A stretch of DNA of 64,000 nucleotides from an uncultured Desulfobacteraceae bacterium (GCA_964596535.1 CAZQUR010000004.1:33-64032); one strand, 5' to 3'; counted from the first letter of the stretch, positions 39,778 through 59,308 are shown. Notes: generated by a model not told the origin, from the sequence alone. Made by a program: numbers and translations.

Positions 39778-39813
39778 CCCATCGGGCTTGCACGGCCCGG
39801 TAGTAAGGGACCC

Positions 39814-43750: not shown

Positions 43751-44003
43751 GGAAATCATCGAAAAAATAAACACGGCGTTGGCCGGGGAATTCGAGCTGG
43801 ACGAGGCGTCCATGGTGCCTGAGGCGCATCTTTTCGACGACCTGGAACTCGACAGCCTGGACCTGGTGGACATGGTGATTGTCCTGGAGCAAACCTTTGG
43901 ATTTAAAATCCGGGAAGAAGAAGAAATCCGCAGCATCCGGACCCTGGGAGATATTCACGCCTTTGTCATCCGCAAGCGACACCAGAGACTTCAAAGTTCC
44001 TAA
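43740..44003 (+). CDS. acyl carrier protein (ACP 1)
   Basis: GTG 43740 overlapping the KS stop. Phosphopantetheine site DLELDSLDLVDMV. 87 aa. Confidence 0.8.
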   Translation: MTDKEIIEKINTALAGEFELDEASMVPEAHLFDDLELDSLDLVDMVIVLEQTFGFKIREEEEIRSIRTLGDIHAFVIRKRHQRLQSS

Positions 44004-44810
44004 ATGGCTTTCCGCAAAAACCCTGAAAAAAAGGATCATCCGCCGAAAACGGTCCCCGGATCCATGTGGGCCTGTTTTCTGATGACCCTGACGGTCTATC
44101 CTCTGCTCAGCTTGTGGACACTGGGCGGCATGGCTGTATTCCCCGCGGCCTTTTTGCTCTTCAAGTTCGGCACCCGGTGGTCCACCGAACGGATCGTTCG
44201 TTTTTTCATCTGGATCTACGGAAGGGGATGGATCGCCCTGGTTTTTCCCTTTGTCCGGTTCTCGCGGAAGGGCCTTGAAAAAGCCGCATCGATGCAGCCG
44301 GTAATCCTGGTGGTGAACCATTTAAGCTTTTTCGACACCTACTGCATGGCGCTTCTGCCTTTTTACAATCTGGCCCTTGCCATCCGGAGTTGGCCCTTTC
44401 GCATGTATTGGTACGCGCCGTTCATGCGCATGGCCAATTATTTGGACGTGGAAACATCGGGATGGGATGACGCCTCTTTGCAGGCCAAAAAGATCCTCGA
44501 GCGGGGCGGAAACGTTTTGTTTTTTCCGGAAGGCCACCGGAGCCGGAACGGGGCGTTGGGTCGATTCTACTCGGGCGCCTTTCTCCTGGCCGTGGAAACG
44601 GGACGCCCCGTCATTCCCCTGGTGATTTCCGGGACGGATGTCCTTCTGCCCCCGGGTCGCCGGAGGCTGCATCCCGCCCGAATCCGGCTGGAAGCCCTTC
44701 CTCCGGTGGAGCCGAGGCGTTTTTCAGGACCCACCGCCCACATCCAACTGAAAAAAGTCGTGCGGGAAGCCATTGGACGGCGCCTCGAGGAGATACGAAT
44801 GGAGAGATGA
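44004..44810 (+). CDS. lysophospholipid/1-acyl-glycerol-3-phosphate acyltransferase-family protein (PlsC-like)
   Basis: HX4D motif NHLSFFD and FPEGHRSRNG. N-terminal TM segments. Confidence 0.85.
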   Translation: MAFRKNPEKKDHPPKTVPGSMWACFLMTLTVYPLLSLWTLGGMAVFPAAFLLFKFGTRWSTERIVRFFIWIYGRGWIALVFPFVRFSRKGLEKAASMQPVILVVNHLSFFDTYCMALLPFYNLALAIRSWPFRMYWYAPFMRMANYLDVETSGWDDASLQAKKILERGGNVLFFPEGHRSRNGALGRFYSGAFLLAVETGRPVIPLVISGTDVLLPPGRRRLHPARIRLEALPPVEPRRFSGPTAHIQLKKVVREAIGRRLEEIRMER

Positions 44811-45262
44811 AAACATCCCTACGCCTTCCCGTGTCCACAGAAATCCTGATTCCGCATGCACCCCCCATGCGCTGGGTGGAACATCTTTTGCGGTTCGACG
44901 GGGAAAAAGGAGAGGCGGCGTCCCACCGTCTTTCCGAAAACCCCCTTTTTTCCGATACCGCGGTCCTCCCCCTTTTTGTCATGGCCGAACTGATCGCCCA
45001 GGCCTACGCCGCCATGAAGGGATACCAGGATCTTTCGGCGGGACTCCCCGTCCGAAAAGGCTTCCTGGTGGGAATCCGCAGGATCCGGATATTCGAATTC
45101 GTTTACGGGACCCGGACCTTTCTGATTCGGGTCCGGCCCACCGGAGCCCTGGGGGGGTTTTATATGGCGGAAGGGGAGGTGACGCTGGATGGCAGGTGTG
45201 TGGCCGCGGGGAGCGTCAAGGTATGGATCCCCGGCGAAGCACAGGAAGCGCCGTTTCAATGA
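44807..45262 (+). CDS. hotdog-fold beta-hydroxyacyl-ACP dehydratase-like protein (DH 1)
   Basis: ATGA overlap. Motifs IPHAPPMRWVEHLL and FVMAELIAQAYAA are typical of the small dehydratases found in aryl-polyene-type clusters. Confidence 0.7.
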   Translation: MKTSLRLPVSTEILIPHAPPMRWVEHLLRFDGEKGEAASHRLSENPLFSDTAVLPLFVMAELIAQAYAAMKGYQDLSAGLPVRKGFLVGIRRIRIFEFVYGTRTFLIRVRPTGALGGFYMAEGEVTLDGRCVAAGSVKVWIPGEAQEAPFQ

Positions 45263-45891
45263 AACGCATTCCCGCCGTGTTTTTTATCCTTTGCTGCCTG
45301 TTTTCAACGGGAGTCGCAACCGTTTCGCCATCCGATGGGCCCGAAGAAGAAGCGCTGGAACAAATCCGGCAGTCCATGGAAGACATCCATTCCCTGGCCG
45401 GGGATTTCATCGAGGAAAAACGCTTGGTGATGCTCAAGGCCCCTGTCCTCCTTAAGGGGCGTTTTTACTACGTCAAGCCGGATCGGCTCCGATGGGAATA
45501 TTTTTCCCCGGAAGCCCAGGGGTTTGCCCTTTCCAAGGACCGGGGCATTCGATGGCAAAAGAATCCGAACCAAAGGATCCCCTTCGATCTGAATGCCGCA
45601 CCGGCCCTTCAAGGGTTTGTGGATCAGATCTTTTCCTGGATCCAGGGGGATGTGGAAAAAATTCAGAACCGCTATCGTGTTTCCGTATCCTCGGAAGATG
45701 CCGTATCCGTCCTGCTGACGCCGCGCATACCGGCGGAAAAAGCGGTCCTGGATCGGATCCTCATCCGGTTCTCCCAAGATTTACGGTATGTCCGGAGCGT
45801 CCATATCCATGAAAAAAACGGAGACACCTCCCGGATCCGTTTCACACAAGTCCGGATCAACCCCCCCGTGGATTCCAAACTTTTTCCATGA
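45259..45891 (+). CDS. LolA-like outer-membrane lipoprotein carrier family protein
   Basis: ATG 45259 (ATGA overlap). Signal peptide MKRIPAVFFILCCLFSTGVA. Motifs FxQ/EKRL...LKGRFYYVKPDRLRWEY typical of the LolA fold. Confidence 0.75.
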   Translation: MKRIPAVFFILCCLFSTGVATVSPSDGPEEEALEQIRQSMEDIHSLAGDFIEEKRLVMLKAPVLLKGRFYYVKPDRLRWEYFSPEAQGFALSKDRGIRWQKNPNQRIPFDLNAAPALQGFVDQIFSWIQGDVEKIQNRYRVSVSSEDAVSVLLTPRIPAEKAVLDRILIRFSQDLRYVRSVHIHEKNGDTSRIRFTQVRINPPVDSKLFP

Positions 45892-48287
45892 AACCTTTTT
45901 TTACCATTTTTTCAAGAAGTTATATTTTCTTTTCGCCGCGGCGAAAAATCCTTTACGCCGGGACGCTTTTTATCGTTTTCCTCTTTATCATGTTGTCCCA
46001 CAAGATCCAGGTGACCGAAAATATCGCTTCTTTGCTTCCGGATAACCGATCCGAAGCAACCCGGCTCCTTTCCCTTTTGGAGCACATGCCTTTTTCCCGA
46101 AAGATCGCCATCACCCTCAGCGCCGGTCCCGGGACGGAAACGGAACGTCTTTTGGATGCCGGCCGGGAATTGTCCCGGAGCCTGGGACCCCCCTATTTCA
46201 CCCGCGTGGTCTCGGGCCCCGGGGGCCTGGCGGACGGCGCTTTTTTCACCTGGGTCCTTGAATCGCTACCCAATCTTATCACGGAATCGGATCTCCAGCG
46301 GATCGATGCGGCCCTCACCCCGTCATCCATCCGTTTGCGCCTCGAAGCCCTTTTCCAAAGACTCCTCTTTCCCACGGGAATCGCGGAAAAGGCGCTTCTC
46401 AGAGAGGATCCCCTGAATCTGGCCGCTTTCGGGCTGGAAAAATTTCAATCCATGAATCCCTTTCCCGGCACCCGGATCGTCCGAAACCAATTCCTGAGTG
46501 CGGACGGGCAGAGCACCCTCATCCTGGCCGACACGCCTGTCGAGGCCACCGATTATCAAGAAGGAAAGCGTCTGTGCCAGACCCTGGAAGAACGAATCGC
46601 CCGGCATGTCCCCCCGGATATCCGGGCCCGTTATATCAGCGCACATCGGTATACCGTCGCCAACGCCGACGTCATCCAAAAGGACGTGTGGCGGGTCATC
46701 GGACTTTCCACGGTATGCCTCCTTGTCATTTTCCTCGTTTTTTTGCGCCATTGGCGGGCCGGATTCGTATTTCTGGTCCCGGTATCCTCCCTGGGAGCGG
46801 CGGCATGCGCCGTATACCTGGTTTTCCCGGAGGTCTCCGCCGTCACCCTCGGCTTCGGTGCCGTCCTCCTGGGAATCTCCGTGGATTTCGCGATCCATGT
46901 CTATTTCGCTTTGTCCTCGGAAAATCAGAGCCCCGGCGCCGTTCTCGACGAAATCGCCAGGCCCCTTCTTTTTTCCGCATTGACGACGCTTTCGGCCTTT
47001 GCGGTCCTGTGGTTTTCGATCCTCCCGGGGCAACGCCAGACGGCCGTCTTTTCCATGGCAGGTCTTGTCTGGGCCGTGGCCGTTTCCCTGTGGGTGCTCC
47101 CGCATCTCCTCCCGTCTTCCGGACAAAAATCAAAGGCCGGCCCGTGGTGGTACGCACCTCGCCGCGCCAAAGCTCGGTGGGGGGTTTTCCTTTGGGCCGC
47201 TGCCATGGTTTCGGGCGTTTTTGCAATCCGAGACCTTCAGTTTGACGGGGATCTGGGTGCGCTCAACCGCGTTCCGGATTCCGTTTTGACAGCCGAAGAA
47301 AAAACGCAAAGGACCTGGGGGGACTTTCGCCGCACGGCCATGATTCTTTGCCGGGCACCCACCCTGGAAACGGCGCTGGCGCAAAATCATCGCCTCTTTT
47401 CTTTGCTGGAAACGGAAACGGTGCCCCAACACCCGGTGAGCATCGCCCCCGTATTCCCTCCTGTGCAGCGGCAAGAGATGCATCGAAAAGCCTGGGAAGC
47501 CTACTGGCGCCATGGAAGGGGCGCCCGGCACCTGGCAACCTTGAACAGGGAGGCGGCCCGGATCGGGTTTTCGCCCGGGGCATTTCAACCCTTCTTGGAT
47601 CGGCTGCGCCGGAAAGCCCCCCCCATTACCCTGGAAAGCTTTTCGAAAAACGGGTTGGCGCCGATGCTGGAGCCCTTTTTAAGCCGGACCGAAACCGGCT
47701 TTTCCGTGGCCACCCTGGTCCCGGACACGCCGGCGGCCGCAACCGCCTTTAAGAACTTAAAAGACAAGTTGCCGGGAGTGCGCTTTGTCTCCCAGAGCCG
47801 GTTTCGAGAAACCGTCAGCGAGGCCGTAACATCCGATTTCATGAACTTTCTGATCCGGGCCGCCGGAGTGTGCCTCTTCCTGACGGCCCTGTTGTTCCGG
47901 CGGATCACCCTGTTGATCCCGGCCGTGATCCCTGCGGTCTCGGGGGTGGTGGTCATGTTGGGAGGCATGGCGGCGCTGGGCCTGCCGTTCAACCTTTCCA
48001 ACATTGCGGCATCCATCCTGGTCATCGGGCTGAGCATCGACTACGGGATTTTCATGGTCTGCCGGCTCGCCGGGGAATACCGGCACCAAACACAACGGGC
48101 GGTCTTTGTCTCCGGCCTGACCACCCTCTCCGGATTCGCCGCCCTGGCCGCGGCAGATCATCCGGCCCTGTCCTCCATCGGCATCACCGTGATTCTGGGC
48201 ATCGGGGCCGCCCTCCCCGCGGCGCTCTGGGTGGTTCCTTCCTTTTATCGAATGGGTATCGGGGGAACGGATCATGCATCCGCTTGA
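45888..48287 (+). CDS. MMPL/RND-superfamily exporter
   Basis: 799 aa. Two bundles of ~6 hydrophobic helices separated by large soluble loops. ATGA overlap with the LolA-like gene. Confidence 0.8.
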   Translation: MKPFFTIFSRSYIFFSPRRKILYAGTLFIVFLFIMLSHKIQVTENIASLLPDNRSEATRLLSLLEHMPFSRKIAITLSAGPGTETERLLDAGRELSRSLGPPYFTRVVSGPGGLADGAFFTWVLESLPNLITESDLQRIDAALTPSSIRLRLEALFQRLLFPTGIAEKALLREDPLNLAAFGLEKFQSMNPFPGTRIVRNQFLSADGQSTLILADTPVEATDYQEGKRLCQTLEERIARHVPPDIRARYISAHRYTVANADVIQKDVWRVIGLSTVCLLVIFLVFLRHWRAGFVFLVPVSSLGAAACAVYLVFPEVSAVTLGFGAVLLGISVDFAIHVYFALSSENQSPGAVLDEIARPLLFSALTTLSAFAVLWFSILPGQRQTAVFSMAGLVWAVAVSLWVLPHLLPSSGQKSKAGPWWYAPRRAKARWGVFLWAAAMVSGVFAIRDLQFDGDLGALNRVPDSVLTAEEKTQRTWGDFRRTAMILCRAPTLETALAQNHRLFSLLETETVPQHPVSIAPVFPPVQRQEMHRKAWEAYWRHGRGARHLATLNREAARIGFSPGAFQPFLDRLRRKAPPITLESFSKNGLAPMLEPFLSRTETGFSVATLVPDTPAAATAFKNLKDKLPGVRFVSQSRFRETVSEAVTSDFMNFLIRAAGVCLFLTALLFRRITLLIPAVIPAVSGVVVMLGGMAALGLPFNLSNIAASILVIGLSIDYGIFMVCRLAGEYRHQTQRAVFVSGLTTLSGFAALAAADHPALSSIGITVILGIGAALPAALWVVPSFYRMGIGGTDHASA

Positions 48288-48732
48288 AGAAGCCATCGCC
48301 GCCTGCCGGGAGATCCTTCGTGTGGAACCCGGCGTATTTGTATCGGCGCGGTTTTGTTTTGACAGCCGGTTCATCGGATTTTCCGGACATTTTCCGGGAT
48401 ACCCCCTCCTGCCGGCCTCTGTCCAAATCGCCGGTGCCGCCCGCCTCATCCGGGACACGATGGGCCTGGAAGGAATCGATGGGATTCTCGAAAAAGCGAA
48501 ATTTCTCATGGAAATCCATCCCGGCAAGACGATCCGCATGGACTGCACCCGGATTCCGGAAACCGGGGAGGAACGATGGAAGGTGGATATTCGCGTCCAG
48601 GAGGCGCCGGCGGCTGCGTTTCAATTGATTTTTCAGGCGCCCCCGGAGGACTTCCGGAAGAAAAAGGGTGCGGCAAATCCCGAACCCACGGAGAGCCAGG
48701 ATGAACAAACCCTATTTTCCGAAGGCGGATGA
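48274..48732 (+). CDS. hotdog-fold (FabA/FabZ-like) dehydratase (DH 2)
   Basis: Motif FIGFSGHFPGYPLLPASVQIA (His-Phe-Pro...Pro-Gly-type dehydratase motif). Confidence 0.7.
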   Translation: MHPLEEAIAACREILRVEPGVFVSARFCFDSRFIGFSGHFPGYPLLPASVQIAGAARLIRDTMGLEGIDGILEKAKFLMEIHPGKTIRMDCTRIPETGEERWKVDIRVQEAPAAAFQLIFQAPPEDFRKKKGAANPEPTESQDEQTLFSEGG

Positions 48733-49159
48733 AACCGTGGCGCCCTTGCGCCACTCGGTGCCCCGCCGGGTTCGGTTCGAGGAGGTGGATGCACTGGGCA
48801 TCGTGTGGCACGGCCGGTATGCCAGTTATTTCGAAGACGCCCGTGCCGCCCTGGGGAAAAAATTCGGCATCGGATACCTGGATTTTTATGCCCGTAAAAT
48901 CATGACCCCCATCAAGGTGTTCCACGTGGACTATCACTTTCCCTTGACCTTTGACGAACCCTTTACCATCGAGGCGGTGCTGCACTGGACCGAGGCCGCC
49001 CGCCTCAACTTCGAATACATGATCCGAAACCATGAAGAAAAGATCACCACGACGGGATACACGGTACAGTTGATGCTGGACCCCGACGCGGAAATTCTCA
49101 TGCTCCCGCCGTTGTTTTACAGGGAATTTTTGGATCGATGGAAACAGAGAAAAAAATAA
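48701..49159 (+). CDS. 4HBT/YbgC-type acyl-CoA/acyl-ACP thioesterase
   Basis: ATG 48701. Motif RVRFEEVDALGIVWHGRYASYFEDAR typical of hotdog thioesterases. Confidence 0.75.
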   Translation: MNKPYFPKADETVAPLRHSVPRRVRFEEVDALGIVWHGRYASYFEDARAALGKKFGIGYLDFYARKIMTPIKVFHVDYHFPLTFDEPFTIEAVLHWTEAARLNFEYMIRNHEEKITTTGYTVQLMLDPDAEILMLPPLFYREFLDRWKQRKK

Positions 49160-50292
49160 GCCCGGCCGTTTGGGTGACCCAGGTTTCGGCCGTGACCGCC
49201 CTGGGAAGCACCCTGGATGCCACCTGGCAGGGACTTATCAAAGGGGAGACCGCCATCCGGGAGGTGAAACGCTTCCCCACGACGCCGTATGCCTCCCGCA
49301 TTGCAGCCTGTATCGACGGGCTGAATCCCGGTGAATCCGGATCCCGGATAGAATCCCTCATCGACAATACCCTGGACGCACTCACCGGCATTCCAAAAGA
49401 CGCGTTGTTGATTCTCGCCACCACCAAAGGACCCCTTGACCTTCTGGAAGAAAAAGGCTTTCGATCCGCCACCGGAACCGAACCGTTTCTGATACCGGAT
49501 CTCGTGGAATCGGTTTCCCGCAAATTGGGGATTTCCACCCCGGGCGTCAACATCAGCGCCGCCTGCGCTTCATCCACCCTGGCGCTCATTCTCGGAGGGA
49601 TGCGGATCGCATCGGAAAAGGCGGATGCGGTCCTGGTGGTTTGTGCCGACCTGGTTACGGAATTCGTCTTTTCCGGATTTTCGGCCCTTCAGATCCTTTC
49701 CGCGCACCCGTGTGCCCCCTTTGACCGGAAACGAAAGGGCCTTTCCCTGGGAGAAGGGGCCGCCGCCGTGCTGCTGATGTCGCCCCGCCGGGCCCGATCC
49801 CAGGGAATTTCTCCCCTGGCCGTGCTCCGCGGCGGGGGCATCTCCGGAGATGCCGCACACATCGTCTCCCCGGACAGGAGCGGAAGCGGCCTTGCACGGG
49901 CCGTAAAGCAGGCCCTGTCCGCGGCAGGAATCGGCCCGGAGGGAATCGCCGCCATTAACGCCCACGGTACAGGAACCGTACAAAACGACCGGATGGAACT
50001 GGCCGCGTTTCATTCGGTTTTCAAAGACCGTCCGATTCTAATTCACTCTGTCAAGGGGGCCCTGGGACACACCCTGGGGGCAGCGGGGGGCATTGAGCTG
50101 GCCGTGTCCGTAAAGGCGTTTCAGGAACAAAAGATTCCCTCCACGGTGGGATGCACGGATCCCGAACCCTCGGGAAAAGGACGGATTTTTTCGATCCCGG
50201 CGCCGCTTCCCAAAGGATGCATTTTGTCCACCAATTCGGGCTTCGGAGGCGTCAACGCCGCCGTCATTATCGAAAGCGGAGAGACCCCATGA
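49138..50292 (+). CDS. beta-ketoacyl-ACP synthase (KS 3)
   Basis: Motifs NISAACASSTLALILG, NAHGTGTVQND, GALGHTLGAAG. Confidence 0.9.
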   Translation: METEKKISPAVWVTQVSAVTALGSTLDATWQGLIKGETAIREVKRFPTTPYASRIAACIDGLNPGESGSRIESLIDNTLDALTGIPKDALLILATTKGPLDLLEEKGFRSATGTEPFLIPDLVESVSRKLGISTPGVNISAACASSTLALILGGMRIASEKADAVLVVCADLVTEFVFSGFSALQILSAHPCAPFDRKRKGLSLGEGAAAVLLMSPRRARSQGISPLAVLRGGGISGDAAHIVSPDRSGSGLARAVKQALSAAGIGPEGIAAINAHGTGTVQNDRMELAAFHSVFKDRPILIHSVKGALGHTLGAAGGIELAVSVKAFQEQKIPSTVGCTDPEPSGKGRIFSIPAPLPKGCILSTNSGFGGVNAAVIIESGETP

Positions 50293-51053
50293 ACTTTGTT
50301 GTCACCGGCCTGGGGTGGATGACCGCCGTCGCCTGGGGGACGGGGAAAACCGCAGCGGCCTTTCAGCCCGTGTCCGGGTCTTTTTCGGATGCCTCGGCGC
50401 GGTTTCGCCCCGCCCCCCCTTATCCGCGGTTCAACCGCATGGACGCCGTCTCCAAGGCCGCCTTCACCACCGTTGTTCTGGCCGCAAAAGACGCCGGTAT
50501 GGACTCTTCCGAAAGGAAAAAATCCGTGGGGATCATCGCCGCCACCCGCTTCGGCTGTCTGGAAACGGACAGCGCCTACTTTCAGGGACTTTCGTCCCGG
50601 GAAGGCGCCGGCGCCCGTCCCCACCGGTTTGCCTATACGCTCCCCTCCGCATGCATCGGGGACGCCGCCATCCATCTCGGGTTCACGGGACCGGGGTTCG
50701 TGGTCCAGGAAAAAAACGCCCTTTCCCTCAACAGCCTGCGGTTTTCTTTGGATATCCTCCACCGGAAAGAAGCCGTATCCATGGTGGTGGGGGCCTACGA
50801 CACCGGAGTTTTGGCTCCCCCTGCATTCGAGGAAAAGACGCCGGCCTATGCGGTTTTTTGGGTGATTGAAAGCGCGGCTGTCCGGAAAAAAGGCTACGGA
50901 AAAATCGAGGTCCAGGAAAACGACCACGTCTATTTCCGGGAAAAACGCGTGTATGATCTGTCCGGGATTCTCGACCGGATCCGTGTGGCGCCAAAAGGGA
51001 GCGGCACCTCCCCGCTTCCGCCACTTTCCTTTACCCAGGAGCCGATGAAATGA
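50289..51053 (+). CDS. KS-related protein lacking the catalytic triad (chain-length-factor-like 1)
   Basis: ATG 50289 (ATGA overlap; ORF open from 50151). KS-N-like sequence of 254 aa without the AAC(S/A)S, HGTGT or GHxxGAAG motifs. Confidence 0.65.
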   Translation: MNFVVTGLGWMTAVAWGTGKTAAAFQPVSGSFSDASARFRPAPPYPRFNRMDAVSKAAFTTVVLAAKDAGMDSSERKKSVGIIAATRFGCLETDSAYFQGLSSREGAGARPHRFAYTLPSACIGDAAIHLGFTGPGFVVQEKNALSLNSLRFSLDILHRKEAVSMVVGAYDTGVLAPPAFEEKTPAYAVFWVIESAAVRKKGYGKIEVQENDHVYFREKRVYDLSGILDRIRVAPKGSGTSPLPPLSFTQEPMK

Positions 51054-52318
51054 AGATGCAACTGGTCTATCCCTACTGGCCCAAGCTCAACCGGCAGACC
51101 GAATTTCACCTGCCGCCCCATGGTCCCGTGGTCTTTGCCGCCCAGGTGCCGGAGTGGGTGACCCTCGAGTTTGTCGATGAAAACGTGGACCCCATGATCT
51201 TTGACGAAACGGTCGATCTGGCGGCCCTTTCCGTGATGCTCACATGTCAATTGCCCAGGGCCTTTGAAATCGCCGACCAATACCGGCGAATGCAGATCCC
51301 TGTCATTATGGGAGGCATCGCCGTGAGTTTGCACGCCGGTGAAGCCGCCGGCCATGCCGACGCTGTCTTTCTTGGAGAAGCGGAAGGCCGATTCGAAAAC
51401 GTTTTGGAGGATTTTCGAAACGGTCGGCTTAAAAGGCGTTACGATTATCTGCATGATCCCCCCGATATCCGCCGGGTAGGCCCCGCGCGACGGGAAATTT
51501 TGAACCGGGATCGTTATGTGTACCGGGGGGTGCGGATGCTGGACTTGGTGCACGCCTCCAGAGGATGCCGGTTCCACTGCTTTCCCTGCTGCGTGGGATT
51601 TTTGGGCGGCCGGAGGTTCCGTCCCCGGCCCATCGACACGGTCATCGCGGAAATGGCATCCATTCCCAACAACCGGCTGTTTCTCGTCGACAACTCCCTT
51701 GCCCAGGACCGGGAGTGGCTCATGGAACTTTTTTCGGCCATGGTGCCGTTGAAAAAAAAGTGGGTCTCCCACCCCATCCTGGACGACGATTCGGTCCTCG
51801 AGCTGGCCGCCCGGGCCGGCTGCTGGTATGTTTATCAGGCCGTCTTTGATACTTCCGAAGTGATCCGAAATCGGATCCAGCGCCTCAAAGACCACGGCAT
51901 CGGCGTGGAAGGGACTATCCTTTTGGGCACGGACGACCAGAACGAAGACGCCATTTACCGGCTCGTCGATTTTCTCTTGGAAATCGATCTCGACATGGCG
52001 GAATTCACGATCCTCACGCCCTTTCCGCATACGCCCATTCGGGCCAAGTTTCAAAAACAAGGACGGATTCTCAGCGACGACTGGATCGAATACACATGTG
52101 ACCGGGTGGTTTTTCAACCCAAAAACATGTCGGTGGAAACCCTTGAACGGATGTACCACTATGCCTGGGACACCTTTTATGAAAAGGCCCCTTGCCAGTG
52201 GAAGATGGGAGAACTCTTTCAAAAAGTCATCCGCAAAGAAATGGCCGACGGCACCTATCGCCGATTCGAGGAAAAGGTGCCCCGAACGCCCCGTTTTTTA
52301 AGAAATCAGGAATCGTAA
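51050..52318 (+). CDS. B12-binding-domain radical SAM enzyme 1
   Basis: ATGA overlap. N-terminal Rossmann-like B12-type domain, then CxxxCxxC in HASRGCRFHCFPCCVG. Confidence 0.85.
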   Translation: MKMQLVYPYWPKLNRQTEFHLPPHGPVVFAAQVPEWVTLEFVDENVDPMIFDETVDLAALSVMLTCQLPRAFEIADQYRRMQIPVIMGGIAVSLHAGEAAGHADAVFLGEAEGRFENVLEDFRNGRLKRRYDYLHDPPDIRRVGPARREILNRDRYVYRGVRMLDLVHASRGCRFHCFPCCVGFLGGRRFRPRPIDTVIAEMASIPNNRLFLVDNSLAQDREWLMELFSAMVPLKKKWVSHPILDDDSVLELAARAGCWYVYQAVFDTSEVIRNRIQRLKDHGIGVEGTILLGTDDQNEDAIYRLVDFLLEIDLDMAEFTILTPFPHTPIRAKFQKQGRILSDDWIEYTCDRVVFQPKNMSVETLERMYHYAWDTFYEKAPCQWKMGELFQKVIRKEMADGTYRRFEEKVPRTPRFLRNQES

Positions 52319-52347
52319 ATTCCCTTTTGTAACAGACGTGATCCTTC

Positions 52348-53796
52348 ATGGTGAAAGCAAACGCGAAGAAAATCCTGCTGGTGCATCCCTTGGGGTATGC
52401 CGCCCACTCGGCGGGAAAAGACATTTCCCGGATCGCCAACATCATGCCGCCCTTGGGACTGGCAAGCCTGGCAGCCTATTTGGCGCAAAAGGGGGTGCAA
52501 AGCCGCCTCGTCGACTGCTTTGCCCGACCCGGTGCCGGCCGACGGATCCGGGATTTTCTGATCAGCGAAAAACCGGCGGGGATCGGGATCTCCTGTACCA
52601 CGTCCGGGTTTCTGGACGGCATACGCATCGCCCGGATGGCCAAGGCGACCCTTCCCGGCATAAAAACCGTCTTCGGGGGCCCCCATGTCTCCGCCCTCAA
52701 AGAAAAAACCCTGGCGGAGTGTCCCGAGGTCGATTTCATCGTGACGGGGGAAGGGGAGGAGAGCCTTGCCGAGATCATCGAGAACGGATATGAAGGATCC
52801 CGGGAGATACGGGGGATCGCCTTTCGGGAAACCCCGGAAGCAATCCGGTGGACCGGCCCCCGGACCGGCCTGGACCTGGATACGCTCCCCTTTCCGGCCT
52901 ATGAAAAGCTCGACGGGTTTCCCGAGGGTTATCGACTTCCCATCTTCAATTATCCCCGATCCCCCCATACGAGCTGCATCTCCAGCCGGGGGTGTCCTTA
53001 CGGGTGCAGCTACTGCGACCGTTCCGTCTTCGGATCCGGTTTCCGGTTCAACAGCGCCGAATATCTTTATGCCCACTTGAGGTATCTGAAAGACCGGTTC
53101 GGCATCCGGCATGTGAATTTTTACGATGACCTGTTCACCTTCCACCGCCGGCGGGTGAAAAAATTCACCCGGATGATGATCGACCGCCCGTTGAACATGA
53201 CCTTCAACTGCGCCGTGCGCGCCGAACACATCGATTCCGATCTGTTGAGACAGATGCGGGCCGCAGGGTGCTGGATGATCAGCCTGGGAATTGAAACCGG
53301 GGATCCCGCCTTGTTATCCCGGCACCGCCGCCATGCGGACTCGGCGTGCATCGCCGAGGCCGTGCACCGGATCAAGGCCGCCGGCATCCGGGCCAAGGGG
53401 CTTCTGATGATGGGGCTTCCCGGGGAGACGGAAGAAAGCATCCAGATGAGCATGGATTTTGTCTTTTCGCTCCCCCTCGATGATTTCAACCTCACCAAGT
53501 TCACCCCCTTTCCCGGCGCTCCCTTGTATGACCGGATCCGCGAACAGGGACGTTTTGAAGAAGACTGGGAAAAGATGGATTGCATGCATTTTGTCTTCAT
53601 CCCCAAGGGAATGACCCGGGAGGTCCTGGAAAAACGATTTCAGACTTTTTATAAAAGACATTTCCTGCGCCCCCGCACCCTCACGGGATACGCGGGCATG
53701 CTGTGGCACTCTCCGGAAAGCTGGGCGCGCTTTATCCGGCACCTGCCCGATTTCATCCGGTTTGCAAAGACAAACGAACGCCTGGGAGGATCCTGA
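52348..53796 (+). CDS. B12-binding-domain radical SAM enzyme 2
   Basis: N-terminus KKILLVHPLG...PPLGLASLAAYLAQKG (B12-type domain). CxxxCxxC in SSRGCPYGCSYCD. Confidence 0.85.
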   Translation: MVKANAKKILLVHPLGYAAHSAGKDISRIANIMPPLGLASLAAYLAQKGVQSRLVDCFARPGAGRRIRDFLISEKPAGIGISCTTSGFLDGIRIARMAKATLPGIKTVFGGPHVSALKEKTLAECPEVDFIVTGEGEESLAEIIENGYEGSREIRGIAFRETPEAIRWTGPRTGLDLDTLPFPAYEKLDGFPEGYRLPIFNYPRSPHTSCISSRGCPYGCSYCDRSVFGSGFRFNSAEYLYAHLRYLKDRFGIRHVNFYDDLFTFHRRRVKKFTRMMIDRPLNMTFNCAVRAEHIDSDLLRQMRAAGCWMISLGIETGDPALLSRHRRHADSACIAEAVHRIKAAGIRAKGLLMMGLPGETEESIQMSMDFVFSLPLDDFNLTKFTPFPGAPLYDRIREQGRFEEDWEKMDCMHFVFIPKGMTREVLEKRFQTFYKRHFLRPRTLTGYAGMLWHSPESWARFIRHLPDFIRFAKTNERLGGS

Positions 53797-54964
53797 TATT
53801 TTTCCGGAAAAGACGAAAATCCTGGCCGTGATTCCGGTCTACAACCACGCCCGCACCGTAGCCGGTGTGGCCCGGAAAACACGCGCGGTCATCCCCCGGG
53901 TGCTGGTGGTGGACGACGGCAGCACCGACGCGGGGGCCGCGGTCCTTTCCGAGGTCGATGTCCCCGTCCTCCGACACCCCGAAAACCGCGGAAAGGGCGC
54001 CGCGATTTTGACGGCGGCACGCCGGGCACGGGACATGGGCATGACCCACATGATCACCCTGGACGCCGACGGACAGCACGATCCCGCCGATATCCCTGCC
54101 TTCCTTGACGCCATTCAAAAGGATCCCGAATCCATATTCGTGGGGAACCGGCGGATCTTCCCCGCCGGAACCCCTTTCTTGTCCCGGTTCGGAAAGCATT
54201 TCTCCAATTTCTGGTTCCGCGTGCAGACCGGCCGGAAGGTCAAAGATACCCAGTGCGGCTTCCGGGCATATCCGCTCTTTCTCTTCGAGGCGTTATCGCT
54301 CACCCAGAGCCGATACGCCTTCGAAGTGGAAATCCTTGTCAAGGCGGCTTGGGCGGGCATCCCCCTGAAGGATCTTGATATATCCGTGTTCTACCCGTCC
54401 AAAAGTCAGCGGGTCTCCCATTTCCGGCCCATCATGGACAATCTGCGCATCTCTATTTTGAACACCCGGTTGACTTTCCGCTCCTTTATACCGTGGCCCC
54501 ATCGACAAATCCTCAAGCCGGAAGACCCGCGGTTGCGAATCACCCCCCTGCACCCCATCCGGTCTTTAAGAATCCTTTTGAAACAGAATTTAACCCCTGG
54601 AAAAGCCGCCCTCTCCAGCGCCATGGGCGTCTTTTTGGGAACCCTTCCGGCCATCGGCTTTCATACCCTGTCGATCCTTGCCGCCTCCGGGTATTTCCGG
54701 TTGAACCGCCTGGCGGCCTTGGCCGCCGGCCAGCTTTGCATGCCCCCTTTTGTCCCGGCCCTTTGCATTGAAGCGGGGTATTACCTGCGCCACGGCCGGT
54801 TCCTAACCGAAATCTCCACGGAAACCCTGGGATACCAGGGATGGGAACGCCTCCTCGAATGGGGCATCGGATCCCTGGTGGTGGCGCCGATTTTATCCAC
54901 CGTCGTCGGCGGGGTGACGTATTTCGCCGCCCTGGGGATCACGGGCCGCTTTCATGAAAAATGA
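53762..54964 (+). CDS. family-2 glycosyltransferase with C-terminal multi-TM (DUF2062-like) domain
   Basis: Motifs LAVIPVYNHARTV, VVDDGSTDAG, TLDADGQHD. Hydrophobic C-terminal third. Start uncertain (TTG 53762 overlaps the upstream gene by 35 nt). Confidence 0.8.
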   Translation: MQRQTNAWEDPDIFPEKTKILAVIPVYNHARTVAGVARKTRAVIPRVLVVDDGSTDAGAAVLSEVDVPVLRHPENRGKGAAILTAARRARDMGMTHMITLDADGQHDPADIPAFLDAIQKDPESIFVGNRRIFPAGTPFLSRFGKHFSNFWFRVQTGRKVKDTQCGFRAYPLFLFEALSLTQSRYAFEVEILVKAAWAGIPLKDLDISVFYPSKSQRVSHFRPIMDNLRISILNTRLTFRSFIPWPHRQILKPEDPRLRITPLHPIRSLRILLKQNLTPGKAALSSAMGVFLGTLPAIGFHTLSILAASGYFRLNRLAALAAGQLCMPPFVPALCIEAGYYLRHGRFLTEISTETLGYQGWERLLEWGIGSLVVAPILSTVVGGVTYFAALGITGRFHEK

Positions 54965-55886
54965 TGCCCGCACCCGTTCCGCCCGTCGATTGAAACGCTG
55001 GACATCCCGGAGCATTGGTTCACGGTTTCAGCATCGGATCTTTTACGCCCTGATTCGGGCGGGGGGCATCCATCTGGCCTACCCCCTCCTTTACGCCGTC
55101 GTCTTTTATTATATGACGTGCAGGCCGTCGATCCGGCAAAAGACGGCCTTTTACCTGGAAAAACGCTTTCCGCAAAAAAGCGCGGCAGAACGCTTTGCGG
55201 ACAGCTGTCGGATCAGCATAACTCTGGGAAAGGTCCTCATCGAACGGGCCAAAGCCGGTATCCGGGGGCCGGAGACCCTTACGCTTTCTTTTCCCGCCAA
55301 AGCGCGCCTCTTCCGCCTCCTGGAAGAAAACCGGGGACTCATCCTGATGAACGCCCACGTGGGGGGGTGGCAGGTGATTCTGCCGGCGTTGCCCTCTCTG
55401 GGACGCCCCGTGAAAATGCTCATCGAACGGGATGCACAGGATGTGGATCTGCATTATTACGAACACGCCCGTCGCCCCCGGCCGTTCACCGCCATCGACC
55501 CCAGAGGATTCCTGGGGGGGAGTCTCGAAATGATAGGCGCCCTGGAACGGGGGGAAATCCTGTGCGTGATGGGGGACCGGGTATTCGGCAGCGATAAAAA
55601 CGTCGTCCATGTCCCCTTTTTAGGCAAAAGGGCGGTTTTCCCCTTCAGTGCCTTTAAAATCGCGTCCGTTTCGGGTGCCCCCGTCGCGGTCTTTTTTTCC
55701 CACAGGATCGGGCGGGACCGCTACGGCATCGAGATCCCGGACGTGATCCGGGTCCCCGCCGGCCTCGGGCGATCCCCCCATGCCTTTGAGCCGTATGTTC
55801 ATCGTTTCGTGGCCGCCCTGGGCGCCTATACCCGGGAGCATCCCTATCAATTTTTCAACTTCTATGATATGTGGGCGAAATCTTAG
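54954..55886 (+). CDS. LpxL/HtrB-like lipid acyltransferase (LPLAT superfamily)
   Basis: N-terminal TM, then MNAHVGGWQV (H-x4-type acyltransferase motif). 310 aa. Confidence 0.7.
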   Translation: MKNDARTRSARRLKRWTSRSIGSRFQHRIFYALIRAGGIHLAYPLLYAVVFYYMTCRPSIRQKTAFYLEKRFPQKSAAERFADSCRISITLGKVLIERAKAGIRGPETLTLSFPAKARLFRLLEENRGLILMNAHVGGWQVILPALPSLGRPVKMLIERDAQDVDLHYYEHARRPRPFTAIDPRGFLGGSLEMIGALERGEILCVMGDRVFGSDKNVVHVPFLGKRAVFPFSAFKIASVSGAPVAVFFSHRIGRDRYGIEIPDVIRVPAGLGRSPHAFEPYVHRFVAALGAYTREHPYQFFNFYDMWAKS

Positions 55887-55905
55887 AACCTTGCATCCGA
55901 TACCC

Positions 55906-56160
55906 ATGGATATCAAAACCAAACTCAAAACCATCATCGTTGAAGAATTGAATTTCGAGGACTTGACACCCGCCGAGATTCCCAACGACATCCCCCTTTT
56001 CGGTGACGGTCTGGGGCTCGATTCCCTCGATGCCGTGGAACTTGTGGTGCAGATCCAAAAGTACTTCGGCGTGCAAATCAAAAACATGGAGGAAGGCCGC
56101 ACAGCCTTTCAGTCCGTCAACGCCCTTGCGGCATTCATCGCGGAGCGACTCCCGGAATGA
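55906..56160 (+). CDS. acyl carrier protein (ACP 2)
   Basis: ATG 55906. Phosphopantetheine site GLGLDSLDAVELV. 84 aa. Confidence 0.85.
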   Translation: MDIKTKLKTIIVEELNFEDLTPAEIPNDIPLFGDGLGLDSLDAVELVVQIQKYFGVQIKNMEEGRTAFQSVNALAAFIAERLPE

Positions 56161-57359
56161 ATGCCCCGGTGCCTGTGGCCGTTACCGGTATGGGGTGTAT
56201 CTGCGCCGCGGGAAAAGATTTTCCCGCCTGCGTGCAAACCCTTTTCTCCAAAGATCCGGATCCGAAACCACCGTCCCGCTTCACCGCCCGGCACCCGGAA
56301 ACCCATCCGGTTTTCGAGATCGAGGCATCGACCCTCACCGATCTTCACTCCAAGGAAGATCTTTCCGTCACCGCCGCCCTCGCCGTCGCCGCCGCCCGGC
56401 AGGCTCTGGAAGACGCCGGATGGGATCCGGAAGCCTTGAGCCGGGTGCGCACAGGGGTGTGCATGGGCACCACCGTGGGATGCACCCTGAACGACGAGGC
56501 GTTTTACCGCACCTATCGCTCCGGGACGCTGCCGGACCTGTTTCCCGTCCGGCGCTTCCTTTCGAGCAACCCGGCGGAAGCCGTCGCAAGAACCTTCGAT
56601 CTTTCCGGACCCTGCCTCACCCTTTCCAATGCCTGCTGCTCCGGCGCGGATGCCATCGGCATCGCCATGTCATGGATCCGCCGGGGGATTTGCGACGTGG
56701 CGATTGCCGGAGGCGCCGACGAATTGTCCCGAGTGACCTACAACGGGTTCATCGCGCTGATGATTACCGATACCCGTCCCTGCCGGCCGTTTGACCGGGA
56801 TCGAAACGGATTGAACCTGGGGGAAGGCGCCGCCGTGATGATCCTGGAACCGGAAGCCTCCCGGCGGGTTCGGAAACGGGCGCCCCGGGCCTTTGTCCTG
56901 GGGTATGGATCGGCCGCCGACGGGTACCATCTGACGGCGCCGGACCCCGACGGCGCCGGACTCCGGCGCGCCGCGGGCCATGCCTTGTCCGCGGATGGAA
57001 AGACCCTTTCCCGTATCGCTTTCGTGGCGGCCCACGGGACCGGAACAAAAGACAATGACGCCGTCGAAGCCCGCGTCCTCGACGCCCTGCTCCCGGGAAT
57101 CCCCTTCTTTTCCACCAAGGGGCACACCGGTCACACGCTGGGGGCCGCCGGGGCGATCCAGGCCGTACTGGCGGCCGCCTGCCTCAATAGAAGAACGATT
57201 CCCGGAAGCGCCGGTTTTTCCACCCCCGATCCCCAACTCCCGGCACACCCCACGCGTTATCCCCGGACGATCCGCGGCGATCTGGCCCTTTCCGAGTCCC
57301 TCGGATTCGGGGGCGCCAACGCGGTGTTGCTCCTGGAACGCGGAGAGGATTCCTCTTGA
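56157..57359 (+). CDS. beta-ketoacyl-ACP synthase (KS 4)
   Basis: ATGA overlap. Motifs LSNACCSGADAIG, AAHGTGTKDND, GHTGHTLGAAG. Confidence 0.9.
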   Translation: MNAPVPVAVTGMGCICAAGKDFPACVQTLFSKDPDPKPPSRFTARHPETHPVFEIEASTLTDLHSKEDLSVTAALAVAAARQALEDAGWDPEALSRVRTGVCMGTTVGCTLNDEAFYRTYRSGTLPDLFPVRRFLSSNPAEAVARTFDLSGPCLTLSNACCSGADAIGIAMSWIRRGICDVAIAGGADELSRVTYNGFIALMITDTRPCRPFDRDRNGLNLGEGAAVMILEPEASRRVRKRAPRAFVLGYGSAADGYHLTAPDPDGAGLRRAAGHALSADGKTLSRIAFVAAHGTGTKDNDAVEARVLDALLPGIPFFSTKGHTGHTLGAAGAIQAVLAAACLNRRTIPGSAGFSTPDPQLPAHPTRYPRTIRGDLALSESLGFGGANAVLLLERGEDSS

Positions 57360-58468
57360 AAGCCATCATCCGGGGAATCGGTGTTGTGGGGGGATTCGGC
57401 ACCGGGATTTCGACCCTGGAAAAGATCCTTGTGGATCATGGACCCTACATCGAATCCTTTGCCGTTCCGGACTGTCAGCCTTTGGGCGGAGAACCTTACG
57501 TCCCCGTCAATACCCGGAATTTGAAAGAACGGTTGCCCGCGCGATCCCTCAGGCGAATGGATCATCTTTCCCGGATGGCCCTTCTTGCCGCCGCCCTGGC
57601 CCTGGAAGACGCGGCGGATCCCGGGGAAAACGCCGACACCGGTGTCGTGGTGGCCAGCGGATACGGCGCCGTCCGTACCACATTTGCATTTTTGGATACG
57701 GTCCTGGAAGCAGGGGATGCCGGTGCCTCTCCCACCCTTTTTTCCAACTCGGTGCTCAACGCCCCCGCCGCGTACATCTCCATGCATCTGGGGGCGAGGG
57801 GCCCCAATCTCACGGTGAGCCGATTTGAAATGTCCTTTTCGGATGCCCTTTCCATTGCCGTGCAATGGCTGGAAGAAGGGCGCGCCCCTTCGGTCCTGGT
57901 GGGAGGGGTGGATGAATGGTGTCCGGTTTTGGGCCACTGCCATCATCGTTTTTCTAAATCCCGGGACGCGGCGGCCTTTTTGAGCCCTTTCGGCGCCGGC
58001 CGGGAGCGTGTCCGGATCGCCGAAGGGTCGGTTTTTTTCCTGTTGTCCCCGGAAAAGGAACCCGCATCGGGATACGGTGTCGTGGAATCCGTTGAAAGCG
58101 GACGTTTGCCCCGGGACACACCGACCTTCCCGAAAAACGCCGTGATTCTCACCGGGATCGACAGCCACCGGGATTCGGCCCGGCAGCCCCTTCCCGAGGA
58201 TCGCAGGGTCGTGGACTACACCGGCTATTACGGGACATTGCCTGTGGGGACGGGATTTGATATGGCCATTGCAAGCGTGATCGTGCGGCGGGGACGCCTC
58301 TTTTCTGCACCGGATTCCACCGGAAGCGAAACGGTCGTCGATGGGTTCCAAACCGAAAAAACGCCGAAAATCCGAAGGGCGTGCTGCTTGAACATCACCC
58401 CCTCCGGCGCCTACGGCCTCATCACCCTCGCCTCAGGCCCGGATTTTTCGGAAAACAGCAAATTTTAA
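57356..58468 (+). CDS. KS-related protein with active-site Cys replaced (chain-length-factor-like 2)
   Basis: Overlaps the KS 4 stop. TVSRFEMSFSDALSIA stands where a KS has xxAC(S/A)S. Confidence 0.7.
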   Translation: MKAIIRGIGVVGGFGTGISTLEKILVDHGPYIESFAVPDCQPLGGEPYVPVNTRNLKERLPARSLRRMDHLSRMALLAAALALEDAADPGENADTGVVVASGYGAVRTTFAFLDTVLEAGDAGASPTLFSNSVLNAPAAYISMHLGARGPNLTVSRFEMSFSDALSIAVQWLEEGRAPSVLVGGVDEWCPVLGHCHHRFSKSRDAAAFLSPFGAGRERVRIAEGSVFFLLSPEKEPASGYGVVESVESGRLPRDTPTFPKNAVILTGIDSHRDSARQPLPEDRRVVDYTGYYGTLPVGTGFDMAIASVIVRRGRLFSAPDSTGSETVVDGFQTEKTPKIRRACCLNITPSGAYGLITLASGPDFSENSKF

Positions 58469-58505: not shown

Positions 58506-59282
58506 ATGGGTTTCAGCATCAGCGGTTACGTGGGCAGGCAGACGCTTCGCTCCGGAAATCACCTGCTCGAACTGGCGGCGTTCGGATACCGCATCGCCGG
58601 TGGTTTTTTCAGGCAAAGGCCCGGAGACAAAAAGGCGTTCCGGCGATGCCTCCTCGAAGAAGTCTTTTTTTCCTGTATTGAAGCCTTGAGAATCGTAGTC
58701 CCGGCCGCCCTTCTGATCGGCGCCGCCTTGATGCTTTATCTGAGTCGGGTATCGGAACAGTTTTTCCTGGGAAAAGCGATCCTCTTTGTGATCGTCCGGG
58801 AGGTCGGTCCCGCCCTCACCGCCCTGTTGGTCATCCTCCGCTCTTCCCCGACGCTGACCGGCGAAATCCTTTGCATGCGCGTCTGCGAGGCGGGCGGCAA
58901 TCCCTCCGCTCCGAGCCCAGTCGACTGGCAAACGGTCTGCAGCCCCCGGATTTTCGGCCTGATCCTTTCCCTCCTGTTGCTCTTTATCGTCTTTGACGTG
59001 GTCGCCATTTTCGGAGGATTCGCCGCCGTGTGGATCGGATCCGATATTCTGCTGGGCGACCTTCCGGCCCAAATCGGAAAAGCCCTGGTCCTCACCGATA
59101 TCGCGGTCCCCGCAGCGAAGGCGTTTTTTTTCGGTACGCTCATCGGCGTGACCAGCCTGTTCTACGGGTTCAAACGCCAGCCCGAAATGTTCGCCGTTCC
59201 CCGTGCCGCCTCCCGGGCAGCCATGGAAAGTTTCTTCTACTGCCTGGTGGCCAACATCGGCATCTCGGCAGCCTTTTATTGA
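58506..59282 (+). CDS. mlaE: MlaE-family ABC transporter permease
   Basis: Motif REVGPALTALLVILRSSPTLTGEI matches the MlaE/YrbE signature region. ~5 TM segments. Confidence 0.75.
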   Translation: MGFSISGYVGRQTLRSGNHLLELAAFGYRIAGGFFRQRPGDKKAFRRCLLEEVFFSCIEALRIVVPAALLIGAALMLYLSRVSEQFFLGKAILFVIVREVGPALTALLVILRSSPTLTGEILCMRVCEAGGNPSAPSPVDWQTVCSPRIFGLILSLLLLFIVFDVVAIFGGFAAVWIGSDILLGDLPAQIGKALVLTDIAVPAAKAFFFGTLIGVTSLFYGFKRQPEMFAVPRAASRAAMESFFYCLVANIGISAAFY

Positions 59283-59308
59283 TTCGCTTTTAAGGGCAAC
59301 GGAGAGTT

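Follow-up and report, generated by a model that had tools for sequence, protein, structure and literature searches.

The 64,000-nucleotide stretch of DNA analyzed here (the window) comes from an uncultured Desulfobacteraceae bacterium (GCA_964596535.1 CAZQUR010000004.1:33-64032) and carries two adjacent genes for radical S-adenosylmethionine (SAM) proteins, termed rSAM-A and rSAM-B, within an operon that by its gene content is of the aryl-polyene (APE)/flexirubin lipid type. rSAM-A (51050..52318, +; 422 aa, ATG start) is a divergent radical SAM protein with a B12-like domain, and its CxxxCxxC motif reads CRFHCFPC at residues 173-180 (C173, C177 and C180; nt 51566..51589, +). rSAM-B (52348..53796, +; 482 aa, ATG start) is a canonical class-B protein, with a B12-binding and a radical SAM domain, that has an accessory place in the cluster; its motif is CPYGCSYC at residues 216-223 (C216, C220 and C223; nt 52993..53016, +). 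An earlier note, drawn up from the sequence alone, had described two such open reading frames (ORFs) with these motifs between a chain-length-factor (CLF)-like gene and a family 2 glycosyltransferase (GT2) gene. The coordinates it gave were exact, as was its observation of an ATGA overlap between the CLF-like gene and the first ORF (51050-51053). The stop codon of that gene, CLF3, a chain-length-factor-like truncated ketosynthase (KS; 50289..51053, +; Pfam ketoacyl-synt N-terminal domain only, weak AmcG match), lies at 51051-51053 and the start codon of rSAM-A at 51050-51052. The same overlap is seen at the junction of CLF3 with KS3, an ApeO/AmcF-like ketosynthase of the type II polyketide synthase (PKS) kind (49138..50292, +; Pfam ketoacyl-synt N and C; AmcF 228.5 bits, cut-off 325). 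At the other end, rSAM-B runs into the ApeJ-like GT2 + DUF2062 glycosyltransferase gene (53762..54964, +; Pfam), which begins at 53762. The gene pair is real. It does not constitute a new kind of system but adds one more member to a cluster family that had already been noticed and is very widespread, and its two enzymes are not equivalent, rSAM-A being a universal orphan core enzyme and rSAM-B an accessory class-B enzyme.

A fundamental question is whether rSAM-A, which gives a weak Pfam signal, belongs to the radical SAM fold at all. Its motif cysteines C173, C177 and C180 are invariant in three alignments of rSAM-A sequences (A1, A2 and A5), the first of which covers 14 orthologues from more than eight phyla with a mean column identity of 73%. 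The AlphaFold (AF2) model, with a predicted local distance difference test (pLDDT) of 88.4 and a predicted template-modeling score (pTM) of 0.85, matched radical SAM structures and barrels, and the rSAM-A and rSAM-B family profiles align across 347 columns, including the N-terminal domain, with an hhalign probability of 99.2%. For these reasons rSAM-A is a genuine member of the fold despite its weak Pfam signal. The two window proteins are themselves 24% identical (E = 6e-20), and the N-terminal motifs PPxG..AA and GG are common to both families. With regard to the B12-type N-terminal domain that the earlier note had assigned to both proteins, the assignment stands for rSAM-B and is marginal for rSAM-A, in which the Pfam B12-binding (PF02310) match scores 33.6 bits against a cut-off of 32.1, but the N-terminal domains do align.

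The conservation of rSAM-A is consistent with a central role. Homologues at 60-80% identity number in the thousands for rSAM-A and for rSAM-B alike, all under generic names, and since they occur in the same synteny the pair is evidently not a chance motif match. In a comparison of 68 loci with at least 8 kb on either side, in all of which rSAM-A is present by construction, median identity was 67% for rSAM-A, 52% for GT2, 46% for KS3, 38% for the MMPL exporter and 32% for CLF3. Judged by these values, rSAM-A is the best-conserved gene of the cluster and, by all indications, its core enzyme. The order of CLF3 followed by rSAM-A is also conserved, with the 4-nt overlap present in 23 of 82 loci and the other gaps mostly short; one Geoalkalibacter genome (L134) has an insertion sequence element between the two genes. 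Beyond its orthologues, which fall into about two full-length clusters among 1.84 billion representative proteins, the next relatives of rSAM-A form 728 clusters at E<=1e-30 with 30-40% identity, and none of the 70 of these that were scanned came near the cut-off of a curated family (best E ~1e-39; cut-offs 250-650 bits). The genomic context of one such paralogue (P0252) was uninformative. Another relative (P0346; L197:2051-5683) is a 1210-aa fusion of an MMPL/RND lipid transporter with an rSAM-A-like B12/radical SAM domain, which ties the superfamily to lipid transport.

rSAM-B presents a different picture. Its motif cysteines are invariant in its own family alignment (A3), its Pfam scores are 83.4 bits for the B12-binding domain and 88.5 bits for Radical_SAM (PF04055), and by sequence it appears to be a bona fide class-B enzyme from the BchE/HpnJ-like region of the class. 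Among 88 non-redundant related loci with at least 9 kb of flank, the set to which the counts of rSAM-B, of a third enzyme and of tyrosine/phenylalanine ammonia-lyase (TAL) refer, an rSAM-B orthologue was found in 41, i.e., about half. In 42 of 70 loci the gene after the rSAM-B orthologue encodes GT2. An aromatic ammonia-lyase within 10 kb tracks rSAM-B, occurring in 17 of the 41 loci with the gene and in 3 of the 47 without it (Fisher p ~1e-4, kinship ignored).

Of the 88 loci, 70 (~80%) carry the third radical SAM gene, rSAM-C, usually between rSAM-A and rSAM-B, and its representative in one relative (L006, 11260-12627) scores 672 bits on TIGR04072 (rSAM_ladder_B12, 'lipid biosynthesis B12-binding/radical SAM protein'), for which the cut-off is 360. 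The window has no rSAM-C/TIGR04072 gene. Its architecture, rSAM-A followed by rSAM-B without rSAM-C, is that of a minority of 7 of the 88 loci, which include its closest relatives L001, L003 and L004. The next-best NCBIfam matches of the L006 protein are BzaD (192 bits) and the tryptophan 2-C-methyltransferase model (127 bits). Both of these enzymes methylate aromatic carbons. On our analysis the TIGR04072 enzyme, too, may be a methylase, acting on an aryl polyene's aryl head, and not a producer of ladderanes.

How do the two window proteins relate to characterized radical SAM families? Neither reached a curated NCBIfam cut-off, and no rSAM-A match exceeded 43 bits. The scores of rSAM-B and rSAM-A, respectively, were 175.5 and 41.8 bits for HpnJ (cut-off 577.6), 169.5 and 35.1 for BchE (481), 150 and 23.6 for the Sden_1168 P-methylase (575), 147 and 14.4 for ApyD (750), 104.7 and 30 for AprD4 (500), 92.0 and 42.4 for TIGR04072 (360), and 64.4 and 32.6 for HpnR (650). 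Membership of the HpnR hopanoid methylases, BchE, HpnJ, AprD4, PhpK, ApyD and TIGR04072 was rejected on the basis of such scores below the cut-offs, and the analogy to the hopanoid methylases HpnP/HpnR drawn in the earlier note fails at HpnR values of 33 and 64 bits against 650. No close orthology to an unrelated peptide or cofactor maturase, which that note had named as a refuting outcome, was found, all NCBIfam matches being far below cut-off. The HpnJ alignment of rSAM-B is near full length (80-476 against 73-470 of 472), and HpnJ and BchE are both non-methylating cobalamin radical SAM enzymes that carry out ring formation or rearrangement (PMC13598231).

Searches by structure converge on one protein. 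In PDB sequence searches AprD4 was the top match of both window proteins, followed for rSAM-B by QCMT/MgmA and TokK. The structure prediction that the earlier note had proposed was carried out, and in Foldseek both AlphaFold models again matched AprD4 best, the rSAM-A model with a template-modeling (TM) score of 0.76 (PDB 6FD2; TsrM, QCMT, MiaB and CysS at <=0.63) and the rSAM-B model with 0.68 (TsrM, OxsB, TokK and CysS at 0.61-0.67). AprD4 is a radical SAM 1,2-diol dehydratase that does not bind cobalamin despite having a Rossmann-like domain (PMC12931638). Since this closest structure works without cobalamin and the B12 score of rSAM-A is marginal, the cobalamin dependence of rSAM-A is uncertain, and the protein is best described, as modeled, as a divergent orphan. 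No chain described as a tetraether synthase (the solved homologue of Tes/GDGT-MAS) appeared in the PDB sequence searches (E<=0.01 for rSAM-B, E<=1 for rSAM-A) or among the top-50 Foldseek matches, and a relationship to that enzyme was rejected on both counts. The analogy to Tes made in the earlier note is lost with it, and because sequence and top-50 fold matches are both lacking, tail-to-tail coupling is without support; the other chemistries that the note had put forward, methylation and cyclization, are possible.

rSAM-A is widely distributed. The nearest genome is a deltaproteobacterial metagenome-assembled genome (MAG), Meg22_1012_Bin_147, in which the whole cluster is collinear (95% amino-acid identity; 94.8% nucleotide identity over 17.4 kb). 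Two scans of one-genome-per-species collections each confirmed at least 594-597 relatives of rSAM-A, corresponding to at least ~600 species genomes, and orthologues with 60-80% identity occur in more than eight phyla. By record titles, carriers among the matches listed include Deltaproteobacteria (Desulfuromonadales, Geobacter, Syntrophus, Desulfobacterales and others), Nitrospirae, Acidobacteria/Holophaga, Planctomycetes, Verrucomicrobia, Lentisphaerae, Kiritimatiellia, Omnitrophota, Bacteroidetes, Spirochaetes, Elusimicrobia and a Methylomirabilia MAG. Among the cultured organisms that carry it are Desulfuromusa kysingii, Geoalkalibacter halelectricus, Desulfuromonas versatilis, D. acetexigens, Halodesulfovibrio spirochaetisodalis, Desulfobacterium sp. 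N47 and Victivallis vadensis. In a Desulfotalea sp. MAG the rSAM-A orthologue (63% identity) is followed by a TIGR04072-like gene. The G. halelectricus cluster has the same core together with an aromatic ammonia-lyase, DUF3261 and PagL, and ammonia-lyase and DUF3261 are expected for APE clusters (PMC8253772); TAL is found in 20 of the 88 related loci. Even a relative of rSAM-A with 49% identity (L196:1-17248) lies in a rearranged cluster with two acyl carrier proteins (ACPs), a KS-CLF fusion, a CrtI-like oxidase and TAL. The conserved gene order and clusters such as those of Geoalkalibacter and L196 indicate that rSAM-A and type II PKS genes form an ancient and persistent partnership. The L196 cluster additionally contains two small radical SAM proteins, a PS-DH/ACPS protein and an AMP-ligase. 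In some lineages (G. halelectricus, L133/L134; L055) genes for BtrH_N/DUF4872 proteins, which resemble ACP-dependent acyl transferases, and for ABC transporters adjoin the cluster.

In the window itself, the operon comprises 21 co-directional genes on the plus strand from 39013 to 58468; eight junctions overlap by 4 nt, and no gap exceeds 36 nt. It opens with a FabG/FlxB-like ketoreductase (KR; 39013-39777, +; FlxB 315.8 bits, cut-off 340), KS1 (39814-41034, +; Pfam/NCBIfam) and a CrtI/CrtD-like flavin adenine dinucleotide (FAD) oxidoreductase (41031-42521, +), whose Kuenenia homologues had no CrtI activity in a lycopene assay (PMC4790861). KS2 (42512-43750, +), ACP1 (43740-44003, +), a lysophospholipid acyltransferase (LPLAT; 44004-44810, +) and an ApeP-like dehydratase (44807-45262, +) follow, and then a LolA-like carrier with a signal peptide (45259-45891, +; LolA2_flexi 96 bits) and the MMPL/RND exporter (45888-48287, +). 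A single LolA gene at 44773-45891 (+) was rejected, this interval being the ApeP-like gene and LolA with a 4-nt overlap. An ApeI-like dehydratase (48274-48732, +; tblastn with the ApeI-like protein of L134) and a 4HBT thioesterase (48701-49159, +; Pfam 4HBT) precede KS3. Downstream of GT2 lie an LpxL/HtrB-like lipid A-type acyltransferase (54954..55886, +; Pfam Lip_A_acyltrans), ACP2 (55906..56160, +; DSL phosphopantetheine site, the orthologous gene in L133/L134 being PP-binding) and a second KS/CLF pair formed by KS4 (56157-57359, +) and CLF4 (57356-58468, +), both assigned from NCBIfam and Pfam including Ketoacyl-synt_2. The totals are four KS, two CLF, two ACP and two acyltransferases. Long reverse-strand ORFs, e.g., 50930-52222 and 52306-53229, overlap conserved plus-strand genes and were rejected as high-GC artifacts.

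This gene content identifies the operon, as far as sequence allows, as an aryl-polyene/flexirubin-type lipid cluster: it has KS/CLF, ACPs, a KR, ApeI/ApeP-type dehydratases and a thioesterase, LolA and RND/MMPL export, and acyltransferase and glycosyltransferase genes. The fatty acid synthase (FAS)/PKS operon of the earlier note is thus upheld as type II and refined to the APE/flexirubin type with LolA/MMPL export, acyltransferases and a glycosyltransferase. The combination of LolA/MMPL export with acyltransferases and a glycosyltransferase points to a specialized, envelope-anchored polyene lipid and not to bulk membrane fatty acids (PMC8253772). As regards other pathway genes, a TAL homologue is absent from the window, neither an aryl-starter ligase nor an ApeB-like methyltransferase was identified among the operon genes, and genes for hopanoid or bacteriochlorophyll synthesis were not identified in the window either.

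Directly 5' of the operon lies a gene for a predicted secreted protein or lipoprotein with a weakly BamE-like C-terminus (38380-38985, +), found near the cluster in fewer than 10% of related loci, that may be a counterpart of the ApeA lipoprotein. At the other end, MlaE-/MlaD-like lipid-transport genes (58506-60349, +) adjoin the cluster, a linkage seen only in the closest relatives L001-L003, and this may be a lineage-specific export addition or mere adjacency; aldolase genes also lie downstream. The region upstream of 38.3 kb is unrelated and encodes two-component systems, Hdr-like redox proteins, a PEP-utilising enzyme, an aconitase-family protein and gdhA. It includes a gene (16603-20034, +) for a 1143-aa HdrA-like FAD/4Fe-4S oxidoreductase in which a response-regulator receiver domain is embedded; the flanking genes encode other Hdr-like redox proteins (CCG-domain), GltD-like ones and PAS/sigma-54 two-component proteins. 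No Rfam element, including the cobalamin riboswitch, was found in the window, and a promoter/terminator scan was uninformative.

What, then, would two radical SAM enzymes do in such an operon? We hypothesize that they are tailoring enzymes of an APE/flexirubin-type type II PKS-FAS lipid pathway, a reading with its mechanism that we hold with evenly balanced confidence. From the gene content, domains, motifs, predicted folds, start-stop overlaps, conservation and synteny described above we infer a substrate, a type of reaction, an order of steps and a use of cobalamin as follows. KS3-CLF3 with the FlxB-like KR and the ApeI/ApeP-like dehydratases would assemble an ACP-bound acyl chain, conjugated or polyunsaturated, by comparison with APE pathways (PMC8253772). 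rSAM-A, presumably co-translated with CLF3 through the ATGA overlap, would cleave SAM at a [4Fe-4S] cluster held by C173/C177/C180, and the resulting 5'-deoxyadenosyl radical would take a hydrogen from the carrier-bound chain, leading to ring closure, to rearrangement or to an AprD4-like radical elimination. rSAM-B, with its gene coupled to GT2, could then use cobalamin in a late tailoring step, which would be C-methylation or else ring chemistry like that of HpnJ and BchE, after which the two acyltransferases and GT2 would transfer the product to a glycolipid anchor and the MMPL and LolA proteins would export it to the outer membrane. The rSAM-A step is most likely non-methylating because the gene is the most constrained and universal of the cluster, the protein resembles AprD4 more than the methylases and its B12 signature is marginal.

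Several points weigh against this proposal. For rSAM-A, the Pfam Radical_SAM (PF04055) score is not significant and the segment after the FDTS motif is shortened. Most class-B enzymes are methylases (PMC13598231), so that the prior favors methylation for rSAM-B, and both AprD4, the closest structure, and HpnJ, the best profile of rSAM-B, act on sugar-type moieties and not on acyl chains. Aryl-starter genes are lacking, with no TAL in the window and no acyl-AMP ligase identified among the operon genes, which makes the nature of the chain uncertain. Finally, the members of this group of cluster enzymes are biochemically and genetically uncharacterized, and heterologous expression of kuste3342/3343, the radical SAM genes of the Kuenenia stuttgartiensis cluster, yielded neither detectable protein nor detectable product (PMC4790861).

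An alternative hypothesis is that both enzymes are class-B cobalamin-dependent C-methyltransferases that act on the acyl or polyene chain or on an aryl head and replace the ApeB of aerobic APE clusters. Most radical SAM enzymes that depend on cobalamin are assumed to act as methylases (PMC13598231), rSAM-B has a strong B12-binding domain with P-/C-methylase matches at 130-150 bits, the PPxG..AA and GG motifs are common to both families, no ApeB-like methyltransferase was identified among the operon genes, and the head groups of APEs are normally methylated (PMC8253772). However, the most conserved and universal gene of a cluster would be an unusual choice for a decorative methylation, and rSAM-A is closest to the cobalamin-free AprD4 with only a marginal B12 score; moreover, the top two matches of rSAM-B, HpnJ and BchE, are non-methylating and no methylase cut-off is approached, so we consider methylation by both enzymes unlikely. 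It is also conceivable that the acyl chain is not the target, and that one or both enzymes, especially rSAM-B, remodel a sugar head group set by the adjacent GT2. Our analysis grades this head-group alternative as serious, and precedents exist in HpnJ, which acts after the glycosyltransferase HpnI in hopanoid cyclitol-ether synthesis, and in AprD4, which deoxygenates an aminoglycoside sugar. HpnJ is the best NCBIfam match of rSAM-B over nearly its full length, the sugar diol-dehydratase AprD4 is the best fold match of both models, and rSAM-B overlaps the GT2 gene, which comes next in 42 of 70 loci. Yet HpnJ gives 175 bits where the cut-off is 578, a score that BchE nearly equals, many clusters without rSAM-B still carry GT2, the genes identified in the operon include no HpnK-type deacetylase, and rSAM-A is coupled to the CLF gene and not to GT2. 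Taken together, we regard head-group remodeling as a rather doubtful account of the pair.

Three other explanations have far less in their favor. Tail-to-tail coupling of the Tes/Mss kind, or Grs-like formation of rings in mature membrane lipids, would give membrane-spanning or cyclized bulk lipids, and all that speaks for it is the general precedent of radical SAM enzymes acting on lipids (PMC13459092) and the presence of two KS/CLF-ACP modules able to supply two chains; with no chain described as a tetraether synthase in sequence searches or top-50 fold matches, and with dedicated export and anchoring genes typical of a specialized envelope lipid, it is highly improbable. That the pair might be unrelated to the operon and lie there by chance, for example as a maturase of a cofactor or of a peptide that is made on the ribosome and modified after translation (RiPP), is suggested by the sub-threshold matches to ApyD, rSAM_ocin_1 and BzaD. 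These scores are far below the cut-offs, the synteny with KS, CLF, ACP and GT2 is kept across phyla, start and stop codons overlap those of the neighbors and no precursor-peptide or cofactor genes were noticed nearby, so we see very little chance of it. The antiSMASH label 'ladderane' would make the two enzymes ladderane (cyclobutane) synthases, and the gene composition does match the cluster type of Kuenenia kuste3335-3352 (PMC2649909, PMC4790861). This literal use of the label is extremely improbable: the closest relative is a deltaproteobacterial MAG and not an anammox planctomycete, Desulfotalea psychrophila has such a cluster and makes no ladderanes (PMC2649909), the cluster is present in many non-anammox phyla (see also PMC9902471), and the TIGR04072 scores are 42 and 92 against 360 bits, with the true TIGR04072 gene missing from the window.

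Having weighed these alternatives, we retain tailoring of the chain or of the head group of an exported polyene lipid as the best reading of the pair. A bolder extension of it, which we offer as a tentative and improbable idea, is that rSAM-A represents an unnamed family of many phyla that carries out the signature oxygen-independent step of an anaerobe-specific polyene-lipid pathway, a chemistry that could be ancestral to ladderane synthesis in anammox bacteria. Such a step could be, for example, a radical cyclization or aromatization of the carrier-bound polyene terminus, or a C-C/C-O rearrangement without characterized precedent on polyketide or fatty-acyl chains.

Why does this matter? Radical SAM modification of fatty-acyl or polyketide lipids has so far been proposed only for ladderanes and for the Jaw5 product (PMC13459092), and reviews and papers of 2026 describe the 'ladderane' radical SAM enzymes as uncharacterized (PMC13459092, PMC13598231, PMC12931638), in agreement with the statement of the earlier note that steps of this sort are poorly characterized in bacteria. 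'Ladderane' biosynthetic gene clusters of unknown function are reported by genome mining from many non-anammox phyla (PMC9902471), and outside anammox bacteria the literature searched gave only such genome-mining mentions in place of functional studies. That the 'ladderane'-type enzymes are uncharacterized is due in part to the anammox bacteria, which defy pure culture and genetic manipulation. The locus described here represents this cluster type's non-anammox branch, carried by at least ~600 species genomes, including cultured anaerobes, and the cultured carriers Desulfuromonas, Desulfuromusa, Geoalkalibacter, Halodesulfovibrio and Victivallis offer an experimentally accessible entry to the ladderane problem. 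Once worked out, the functions of rSAM-A and rSAM-B would name two very large orphan families and would clarify the meaning of antiSMASH 'ladderane' and 'arylpolyene' calls in anaerobes. To what had been noticed before, the present analysis adds the APE/flexirubin identity, the asymmetry of rSAM-A and rSAM-B, the missing TIGR04072 enzyme, the AprD4-like fold and the list of cultured carriers.

With respect to characterized enzymes, AprD4 resembles both window proteins in joining an N-terminal Rossmann-like domain to a radical SAM barrel, and differs from them in sequence (18-21% identity), in its aminoglycoside substrate and in an entirely different genomic context. HpnJ and BchE provide the top, near-full-length profile matches of rSAM-B, although its scores are only about one third of the family cut-offs. 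HpnP/HpnR and Tes/GDGT-MAS have in common with the pair only the general class of radical SAM enzymes that act on lipids. At the level of whole clusters, one counterpart is the APE/flexirubin pathway, in which a type II PKS builds a polyene acyl chain that is attached to a lipid anchor and sent to the outer membrane (PMC8253772). The window operon shares with it KS/CLF, two ACPs, a KR, ApeI/ApeP-like dehydratases and a thioesterase, as well as an LPLAT, a glycosyltransferase, LolA-like and RND/MMPL export and an upstream lipoprotein (PMC8253772). In contrast, radical SAM and CrtI-like genes are not part of classical ape clusters, which do carry an aryl-starter ligase and the ApeB methyltransferase, both missing from the window operon, and the window operon has two extra KS and a second KS/CLF/ACP module.

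The radical SAM genes find their counterpart in a second cluster type. The FASII clusters reported by Rattray et al. (2009) combine radical SAM genes and 'phytoene desaturase' homologues with non-canonical FabF and a glycosyltransferase; since these authors already proposed tailoring by radical SAM enzymes (PMC2649909), the tailoring idea of the earlier note is not new. Their 'ladderane-like' clusters were found in Kuenenia, Desulfotalea psychrophila, Geobacter and Pelobacter carbinolicus, the radical SAM genes being kuste3342/3343 (within kuste3335-3352) in Kuenenia stuttgartiensis and DP1853/DP1855 in D. psychrophila, which makes polyunsaturated hydrocarbons and not ladderanes (PMC2649909). 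Judged against the gene lists in PMC2649909 and PMC4790861, the window shares with these clusters the radical SAM genes, the CrtI-like 'phytoene desaturase', canonical and non-canonical FabF/KS, ACPs, FabG, a dehydratase and a glycosyltransferase; it differs from the Kuenenia cluster in having neither the CoA ligase nor the SAM methyltransferases listed there, and from most of its own relatives in having no TIGR04072 enzyme. The taxa overlap as well, through Geobacter, Desulfuromonadales and the Desulfotalea sp. MAG. The window cluster thus matches the 'ladderane-like' FASII type, its equation with Kuste3342/3343 being made by composition, by taxa and by the Desulfotalea sp. MAG and not by protein comparison.

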